A stretch of DNA of 64,000 nt. Origin: an uncultured delta proteobacterium (GTDB lineage Bacteria > Desulfobacterota > BSN033 > UBA1163). Location: the NCBI GenBank assembly GCA_963827685.1, contig CAWHBU010000006.1, forward strand, positions 288,001-352,000, written 5' to 3'. The position numbers were made by a program, and so were the translations under genes. A model generated the notes under the pieces. It was not told the origin of the DNA, made no database searches, and saw nothing but the letters and a program-made list of their open reading frames with translations. Below, piece by piece: positions 35,348 to 35,419 of the stretch; positions within the stretch are counted from its first letter, which is position 1; every line of letters starts with the position of its first letter.

Positions 35348-35419
35348 AGAATATAACAATATTGTGATATTGTCAAGGACCAAAAAATATTTGGCGGTAG
35401 CACAAATTTGTGATACACT
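35348..35419. promoter_or_regulatory. Divergent promoters (tRNA / TA operon), each with a related 20-bp palindrome in its spacer
   Basis: Minus TTGACA-17-TATTCT with ATATAACAATATTGTGATAT (35351-35370). Plus TTGGCG-17-TACACT with GTAGCACAAATTTGTGATAC (35397-35416). Confidence 0.75.

Follow-up and report, generated by a model that had tools for sequence, protein, structure and literature searches.

The stretch of DNA analysed here, a window of 64,000 nucleotides from an uncultured delta proteobacterium, carries at positions 35348–35419 a 72-bp segment lying between a minus-strand tRNA(GCU) gene and an operon for a Gp49-type toxin, an XRE antitoxin and a DUF3467 protein. Two related near-perfect 20-bp palindromes are found in it, as an earlier note made from the sequence alone had described: palindrome 1 (pal1, 35351–35370), the distal operator candidate, and palindrome 2 (pal2, 35398–35417), the toxin-proximal one. 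Each has 9 of 10 arm positions complementary, and a repeat finder reported arms of 12 nt at 92% and of 10 nt at 90%. The palindromes share a 14-nt core, which forms a direct repeat with its copies 46 bp apart. When the window was searched for this core with up to two mismatches, five matches were obtained, four of them being the two sites read on both strands; the chance expectation is 0.53, and a count of five was reached in 0 of 100 shuffles. The two palindromes are real and non-random. Judging from the sequence and its relatives, the 72-bp segment is most likely a two-way control region of an IS1-like transposon.

The leftward promoter of this region is predicted at 35348–35376 on the minus strand, with TTGACA (35376–35371), a 17-nt spacer and TATTCT (35353–35348), and scored 10/12 in our promoter scan; its spacer is filled by pal1. 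The earlier note had placed each palindrome in the spacer of one of two divergent promoters. For pal1 this held; for pal2 it is doubtful: the proposed rightward promoter (TTGGCG/TACACT) agrees at only 8/12 positions by eye and no plus-strand site at this place passes the 9-of-12 rule of the scan. The rightward hexamer (35391–35396, plus strand) is degraded in the window, reading TTGGCG where 6/6 close homologues have TTGACA. Because the toxin ATG of close homologues follows pal2 by 1–6 nt, the assignment of a rightward –10 element is uncertain.

The operon is encoded on the plus strand, toxin first. Its Gp49-type (RelE/HigB-like) toxin gene (35420–35782) matches PF05973 (E 7.9e-12, 45.5 bits against a cut-off of 23.9), and its end is overlapped by the start, at 35760, of the gene for the 159-aa XRE/HTH antitoxin (35760–36239; Pfam HTH_3, E 1.9e-9). 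This protein, conserved in its N-terminal 108 amino acids and variable at its C-terminus, is the presumed operator-binding repressor. The third gene (36236–36553) codes for the DUF3467 protein (PF11950). The toxin frame is open from 35414, and its start codon in the window is ACG (35420–35422); an ATG stands at the toxin start in 13/13 homologous loci whose start region was read by eye and in 6/6 aligned ones. The first in-frame ATG, at 35489, falls inside the Pfam domain, and a translatable intact toxin gene was not found in the window copy, which makes the release of a ribosome-dependent RNase, as the earlier note envisaged it, doubtful for this copy. A 213-nt contig from a related sediment sample (run X3; a single contig of low depth, 2.6) has A at 35394 and T at 35421; these are its only differences from the window, and both lead toward the consensus, giving a better –35 element and a toxin ATG. 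In the window copy the toxin thus seems to have acquired two derived down-mutations, while antitoxin, DUF3467 gene, tRNA and leftward promoter look intact. With the ACG start, the degraded rightward hexamer and a nested insertion sequence (IS) between the tRNA and the transposase, it is a partly decayed copy.

The palindromes in homologous loci

A search with the XRE antitoxin returned 148 homologues at E ≤1e-3, and 86 toxin–antitoxin (TA) loci were sampled, 13 from genomes and 73 from metagenomes, many of them short metagenome contigs. Palindromes were counted in the 53 loci (window included) that contain the N-terminus of the toxin and 120 nt or more of upstream sequence; some of our locus counts rest on reading the sequence by eye. 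Pal2 is present in 52/53 loci, 8–25 nt before the toxin start, and pal1 in 44/53, 26–80 nt before it; both sites occur together in 43/53. At 33 of the 53 loci no transposase was detected, and the palindromes are still there. They therefore belong to the TA pair, and a role as transposase or recombination sites is ruled out by the same 33 loci.

The leftward promoter recurs less widely. A minus-strand –35 element stands directly beside pal1 in 27/53 loci, and the full rule (–35, 17 nt, –10, at least 9/12) is satisfied at 21 of the 44 loci with pal1; the register TTGACA, 17 nt taken up by pal1, and TAnnnT is repeated in homologues. Among the 44 loci that have at least 450 nt upstream, 19 combine the –35 element with leftward cargo (a transposase or a tRNA-like gene) and 19 have neither; four have the –35 element without cargo, two of these with remnants seen by eye, and two have cargo without the –35 element. 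The Fisher value for this association, 1e-6, is overstated, since near-duplicate loci were kept in the counts (the pairs L021/L022, L024/L025, L002/L026, L019/L020, L055/L057 and L077/L078). One locus, L027, has neither transposase nor tRNA and has lost the –35 element beside pal1.

The same genome contains a paralogous element (L121, G000 contig C3:1120776–1122849; the C3 element) with a transposase 52% identical to that of the window, a different XRE protein and a Gp49-like match that is weak and below the cut-off. Its parts follow in the order transposase, tRNA-like gene, plus-strand hairpin with T-run (by eye), leftward promoter, palindromes, toxin. The leftward promoter scores 12/12 and a different palindrome fills its spacer; a second, related palindrome precedes the toxin (by eye). 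The tRNA-like match, between leftward promoter and transposase, is weak (25.7 bits). That one design recurs with another operator speaks more strongly than any other comparison for a functional operator-in-spacer arrangement. Palindromes that travel with the XRE gene, the leftward promoter in 21 of 44 loci and the C3 layout all favour the idea of a shared operator put forward in the earlier note.

tRNA-like genes are linked to the homologous TA loci on the minus strand in 15/53 and on the plus strand in 7/53 cases, a linkage that supports the earlier note. The loci L055–L058, L077 and L078 have the same operators and, upstream, one or two irregular tRNA genes on the toxin's strand: a 79-nt (GGC/CGC) or 93-nt (GUU) gene followed by a long-arm UAU type, with the UAU type only in L055 and L057.

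The transposon, the odd tRNA and antisense signals

The control region lies inside a transposon of 4,969 bp (31903–36871), bounded by inverted repeats of 22–24 bp (left, 31903–31924, plus strand; right, 36848–36871, minus strand) and flanked by an 8-bp direct target duplication, CAAATCAT at 31895–31902, within a disrupted response-regulator gene, and the identical eight bases at 36872–36879. This minus-strand gene is split into an N-terminal part (36854–37042) and a C-terminal part (31556–31897), which intact homologues from the same genus have joined without a gap. Terminal inverted repeats together with an 8-bp duplication agree with the IS1 family, where duplications range from 8 to 9 bp, and the element ends fit GGnnnTG, the end motif of IS1. 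The 277-aa transposase (32920–33753, minus strand) matches the NCBIfam IS1 model NF033558 at E 1.2e-15, though its 57.9 bits fall short of the cut-off of 100; the models of IS6 and IS1595 fit less well, and Pfam DDE_Tnp_IS1 matches in part only. Its homologues, at 44–78% identity, adjoin TA genes in other loci. A 17-nt core of the inverted repeat brackets the block from the transposase to a small open reading frame (ORF) at the right end in nine loci (window, L002, L015, L024, L025, L026, L029, L036 and L041). The four-part module of tRNA, toxin, antitoxin and DUF3467 proposed in the earlier note is not free-standing but makes up cargo and control region of this transposon, and DUF3467 is present in only 22 of the 86 TA-sampled loci.

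The odd tRNA gene (35215–35287, minus strand) is real, as the earlier note held: it scores 57.5 bits with Rfam RF00005 against a gathering score of 29, has a type-I body with anticodon GCU, pairs by Watson–Crick rules at 21/21 stem positions and encodes no CCA. It is 73–75 nt long with a variable loop of 5 nt. The genome's 48 other tRNAs form a full set, including a normal 93-nt tRNA-Ser(GCU), and 46 of the 49 tRNA genes encode CCA. An ordinary host tRNA that happens to flank an island can be dismissed: the gene lies inside the inverted repeats, is extra to the full set and lacks CCA, and the 251 nt of tRNA and palindrome DNA turned up in 0 of the 40 related genomes searched. The plasmid collection likewise gave no match to the window's tRNA copy, and Rfam searches of the locus and four relatives (E up to 1) returned the tRNA and chance-level rows only. 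In 12 short-arm copies, 90.9% of the cloverleaf cells are paired as against 67.6% in shuffles, and 18 of the 21 stem pairs show changes on both sides; pairing is 95–98% in the acceptor, D and T stems and 72% in the anticodon stem.

The identity of this tRNA does not follow from its anticodon. SerRS needs a long variable arm, and the gene has the cloverleaf of a canonical tRNA-Ser(GCU) with a variable loop of only 5 nt, for which reason we rejected that assignment. Its D-loop motif, GGAUA, is common to the genome's five tRNA-Arg and also to His and Trp tRNAs. Over 56 nt the copy in L015 shares 80.4% identity with the tRNA-Arg(UCU) of phage S-RIM2, the anticodons differing at position 34 alone. 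Among 13 copies with an NCU anticodon (L021 and L022 being near-duplicates), C35, U36, A37 and A38 are invariant and position 34 is G in nine and A in four, never a pyrimidine; an A follows G18–G19 in most of them (by our own numbering). The identity set of ArgRS comprises A20, C35 and U36 or G36. As GCU, or ACU in relatives, reads the AGY codons of Ser, the anticodon does not read an Arg codon; the gene resembles not a tRNA-Ser but a tRNA-Arg(UCU) derivative in which position 34 is a purine. The anticodon loop CU[G/A]CUAA is kept in 11 of the 13 copies (the other two have C33) despite 30–40% divergence elsewhere. Other mismatched types occur among the tRNA-like genes of the family (long-arm UAU, UAC, UAG, UUA-like and CGA). 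Some reduced members retain acceptor and T arms, some copies have C33 or broken stems, and degenerate remnants are left in L008, L012, L013 and L019.

Searching 401 genomes of the phylum for the transposase gave hits in 27; 29 loci were sampled, 20 of them with the transposase N-terminus. A tRNA-like gene stands at most 150 nt upstream of the transposase and on the same strand in 9/20 of these, and one of the 29 loci matches the TA proteins of the window. More distant Gp49/XRE(/DUF3467) sets were recognised by Pfam in L095, L103, L094 and L121, and the others carry unrelated cargo. The association of the tRNA-like gene is with the transposase, also at loci where the TA family is not found, and we count the gene among the parts of the transposon family and not of the TA pair, to which the earlier note had assigned it. 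Elements without the tRNA (L002, L024–L026, L029 and L030) keep the rest of the layout.

Codon usage gave no sign of a decoding role within the element. The proportion of Ser codons that are AGY is 72/240 in GCU/ACU-bearing elements against 89/248 in tRNA-less ones, and self-protection by AGY avoidance was rejected for these genes. We also rejected the idea that the tRNA of an element recodes its transposase in a programmed way: no AGY codon (5–10 per gene in six GCU/ACU-bearing elements) fell in a column where at least half of the 29 other sequences have Arg or Lys, and no ATA codon of three UAU-bearing elements fell in a conserved Ser/Thr column. Two of 30 full-length transposase genes have in-frame stops, which do not match the neighbouring anticodons.

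Signals on the opposite strand bracket the tRNA. A plus-strand promoter at 33841–33869 (12/12, with TG before the –10 element, that is, an extended –10) points antisense into the tRNA 3′-end; equivalents of its TTGACA–17-nt–hexamer were read by eye in tRNA-bearing and tRNA-less homologues, and the one in L004 scores 11/12. Just beyond the tRNA 5′-end a hairpin with a T-run (35303–35338, plus strand; –16.4 kcal/mol, z –3.9) forms a putative intrinsic terminator, which at the same time lies within the leader of the predicted leftward transcript. An equivalent GC-rich stem with T-run was read by eye in tRNA-bearing homologues, and the scan finds one in L004. Together, promoter and terminator suggest an antisense transcript across the tRNA. 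In the window copy the nested IS (33870–35198, minus strand; DUF4372 and DDE_Tnp_1 transposase by Pfam, a secondary insertion) cuts this promoter off from the tRNA, and it separates the transposase from the tRNA as well. Four relatives contain a conserved segment of about 95 nt between transposase start and tRNA (L004:3360–3458, L003:900–997, L045:432–525 and L007:3372–3471), which matches nothing in Rfam. Folding favours its plus strand (–39.2 kcal/mol against –29.4), with G–U pairs where the opposite strand would have mismatches, and in L004 the 11/12 plus-strand promoter precedes it; an antisense small RNA could have this segment as its 5′ domain.

Readings of the control region

The following course of control would account for these features. 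A dimer of the XRE antitoxin most likely binds both pal1 and pal2. At pal2, over the promoter or 5′-end of the toxin–antitoxin–DUF3467 operon, its binding would amount to ordinary TA autoregulation; at pal1, in the spacer of the leftward promoter, it would gate a transcript with a predicted start near 35341, which would run through a leader hairpin into the tRNA-like gene and, in uninterrupted relatives, on toward the transposase. In this way the TA operon and the tRNA/transposase side would answer to a single repressor, and the antisense transcript across the tRNA would add a second layer of control. That XRE controls both sites, with pal1 gating the promoter directed toward tRNA and transposase and antisense transcription as a second check, we consider probable, with modest confidence. 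If XRE does control the leftward promoter, the ‘antitoxin’ would double as the transposon's master switch, and its stress-dependent loss would be linked to the tRNA and possibly to transposition.

Parts of this scheme have known counterparts. The antitoxins of type II TA systems, such as HigBA and other systems with XRE antitoxins, bind palindromes in their promoters and autoregulate. Like HigBA-type systems, the window has a toxin-first operon whose antitoxin is of the HTH type, with a pair of palindromes across the promoter; unlike them, its second putative operator sits in a divergent promoter that would serve non-TA genes. Antisense RNA controls transposase expression in insertion sequences, an example being RNA-OUT of IS10. 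The promoter facing the transposase-directed transcript and its dedicated terminator suggest a similarly short antisense RNA here, whereas the overlap covers a tRNA-shaped segment and not the ribosome-binding site of the transposase.

In Tn3-family transposons, TA pairs are integral to the transposition modules, and Gp49/HTH (HTH_37) pairs lie beside promoters of transposition genes, for which mutual regulation has been raised (Lima-Mendez et al. 2020, mBio, PMC7157771). The Gp49/HTH pair of the window stands beside a transposition-side promoter in the same manner. Tn3-family elements, as described there, have res sites and resolvases and no tRNA; unlike them, the window's element is IS1-like, with operators inside back-to-back promoters and a tRNA-like gene between operator and transposase. 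Non-canonical tRNA genes adjoining TA systems and transposon-related genes were described from soil and sediment metagenomes by Mukai et al. (2017, Nucleic Acids Res, PMC5389517), and a 2020 review (PMC7609411) repeats these findings. The available parts of the 2017 paper report mismatch between anticodon and body, long-arm UAU types, polycistrons and one tRNA with GCU, leaving the function open; some irregular copies have stem-destabilising changes, a UAU pseudogene overlaps a transposon-related ORF, and polycistrons of irregular tRNAs lie near a TA system. Similar long-arm UAU tRNAs and plus-strand polycistrons occur upstream of the window's TA family. The tRNA of the window differs from the published ones, so far as these parts describe them, in its short variable loop and Arg-like body, and from the allo-tRNAs (8/4 or 9/3) in a 7/5 acceptor/T-stem supported by covariation. 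That text names no operator, promoter sharing, IS1-like element or Arg identity, and its figures may show similar loci.

Our search of the published literature, figures and supplements lying outside its scope, found no shared-operator layout, IS1-like carrier or Arg-type GCU/ACU tRNA, and nothing relevant on DUF3467 or ISMhu11. Irregular tRNAs near TA and transposon genes were reported in 2017 without a mechanism or a mode of control. The locus offers a testable layout for them: a transposon family with inverted repeats and, directly upstream of the transposase, a purine-34 gene of apparent tRNA-Arg origin, together with a leftward promoter whose spacer is a putative operator and an antisense promoter and terminator that bracket the tRNA.

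Several observations weigh against control of both sides by XRE. The transposase has a 12/12 promoter of its own (33760–33789, minus strand; its –10 element stops 6 nt short of the ATG) and a T-run follows the tRNA, so the tRNA may be a separate short transcript. Pal1, with 44 loci, outnumbers the leftward –35 element, with 27, and its primary role may accordingly lie in cooperative TA autoregulation. Two loci of the UAC type, L011 and L061, have leftward cargo and fail the simple –35 test, the Fisher value is inflated by near-duplicates as stated above, and a rightward –10 element cannot be sensibly placed. Nor would a purely structural role of the tRNA explain its conserved anticodon loop. 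On another reading, pal1 and pal2 are cooperative TA operators only, the leftward promoter being incidental or weak and the tRNA-like gene an unregulated or decaying passenger picked up by the transposon. The 43/53 loci with both sites, of which the –35 count falls short, would fit this, as would the degenerate tRNA remnants and the tRNA-less elements with an otherwise unchanged layout. The exact register of –35, 17 nt and –10 across divergent elements, reached at 12/12 in C3 with a different operator, argues the other way, and so does the loss of the –35 element in L027, where the leftward cargo is absent; a passenger would also hardly show the strong stem covariation of the tRNA or the perfect pairing of the window copy. 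We regard such a restriction to TA control as very unlikely.

What the tRNA does divides the readings further. It could be an effector of the TA system, loss of XRE releasing, together with the toxin, an Arg-accepting tRNA with an AGY-reading anticodon; Ser would be replaced by Arg, and the tRNA would serve as an RNA toxin or as an effector of abortive infection. The reading of AGY by an Arg-like body of type I (C35, U36, probably A20) agrees with this, as do the purine at position 34 in 13/13 NCU copies, the conserved loop, the other mismatched tRNAs of related TA loci (for example long-arm bodies with UAU) and the predicted operator in the leftward promoter. Induced missense allo-tRNAs, moreover, arrest growth and kill E. 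coli, according to PMC5389517; in the same source, 0/6 TA-associated UAU tRNAs converted to CUA suppressed in E. coli. The tRNA-like gene follows the transposase (9/20) and not the toxin, window-type TA proteins being present at 1/29 loci and more distant Gp49/XRE pairs at three more, and the genes of the element do not avoid AGY. Copies with C33 or broken stems also speak against decoding, and in the window it is the protein toxin that is disabled and the tRNA that is intact. The PADLOC defence models gave no strong match to the element's proteins, only weak partial ones of the toxin to NsnC (5.2e-6 over 47 residues) and of XRE to generic HTH models, the other five proteins having none; the anti-phage role suggested in the earlier note gains nothing from this comparison. 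On these grounds we hold a missense effector of the TA system to be unlikely. A non-standard role of the tRNA tied to the leftward transcript is somewhat more likely than free missense decoding, because the gene is tied to the transposase, reduced copies retain the acceptor and T arms and the codon tests were negative; it could, for instance, be an RNA that undergoes processing, perhaps charging, and is held in check by antisense transcription. It is the conserved anticodon loop with purine 34 that keeps the missense reading alive. Were the tRNA charged with Arg, the mobile element would carry a naturally occurring missense tRNA under regulation. The boldest version, in which IS1-like transposons carry an Arg-accepting, AGY-reading tRNA silenced by repressor and cis-antisense RNA, so that repressor loss would bring Ser-to-Arg exchange across the proteome as a transposition-coupled RNA toxin beside or instead of the protein toxin, appears to us quite unlikely.

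Finally, the main product could be the plus-strand RNA itself, made from the 33841–33869 promoter to the 35303–35338 terminator and checking transposase-directed transcription by pairing or collision, with the tRNA shape secondary. The 12/12 extended –10 promoter and its 11/12 equivalent in L004, the terminators read by eye in tRNA-bearing homologues and the plus-strand fold of the 95-nt segment point in this direction, the fold being backed by four sequences only. It is the minus strand that bears the T-loop and D-loop signatures and gives the Rfam scores, and a slight excess, on the tRNA strand, of G–U pairs over A–C mismatches (11 against 6) points the same way. Besides, the –10 element is weak in several relatives, and in the window the nested IS has parted the promoter from the tRNA with no visible decay of the latter. 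To this possibility we give very little credence, and control of both promoters by XRE, with antisense transcription in a subordinate part, remains our preferred reading.

Other parts of the transposon and its variants

Within the spacer of the transposase's own promoter lies a perfect 14-bp palindrome (33766–33779), conserved in L002 and in relatives of the L015 type. It is a putative operator, whose repressor is perhaps the transposase itself through its N-terminal HTH.

The left cargo of the element (31924–32852, minus strand) consists of a 123-aa ORF (31924–32295), whose sole match is phrog_19071 of unknown function, and a SocA/Panacea-domain antitoxin-like protein (32295–32852; PF13274, E 3.9e-23); the two are likely a second TA-like pair. 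This slot varies across the family, being taken by a 264-aa ORF in L015 and a 282-aa ORF in L002. At the right end, a small basic ORF of 82 aa (36558–36806, minus strand), without a match in Pfam, is conserved in 14 of the 86 TA-sampled and 10 of the 29 transposase-sampled loci.

DUF3467 also occurs beside XRE genes of very different sequence, in L094 (2490–2888), where there is no toxin, and in L103 (3390–3674). The predicted model of the protein (pLDDT 74.5) has three strands and a long helix, and its best structural matches are weak, to COMM-domain and PC4/Pur-alpha chains (Z ≤5.4); searching solved structures by profile produced no significant hit. We considered a SecB-like chaperone, the third gene of toxin–antitoxin–chaperone (TAC) systems, and set it aside as no SecB chain is among the structural matches listed, which does not imply a difference in fold.

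The nested IS is present in the genome in seven copies of at least 99% identity and has therefore been active recently. In the covered parts of four DNA contig runs, no junction was found that would remove either the nested IS or the whole element. The response-regulator gene disrupted by the transposon is a member of a tandem family of small paralogues, with a further fragment at 37098–37337; relatives of the same genus have several such copies per genome.

Loci L019 (2973–3075) and L020 show a variant in which a copy of the inverted repeat cuts the tRNA-like gene and leaves its 5′ half. This repeat and a second one downstream bound a 1.7-kb unit of TA and DUF3467 genes that lacks a transposase and may be a non-autonomous derivative.

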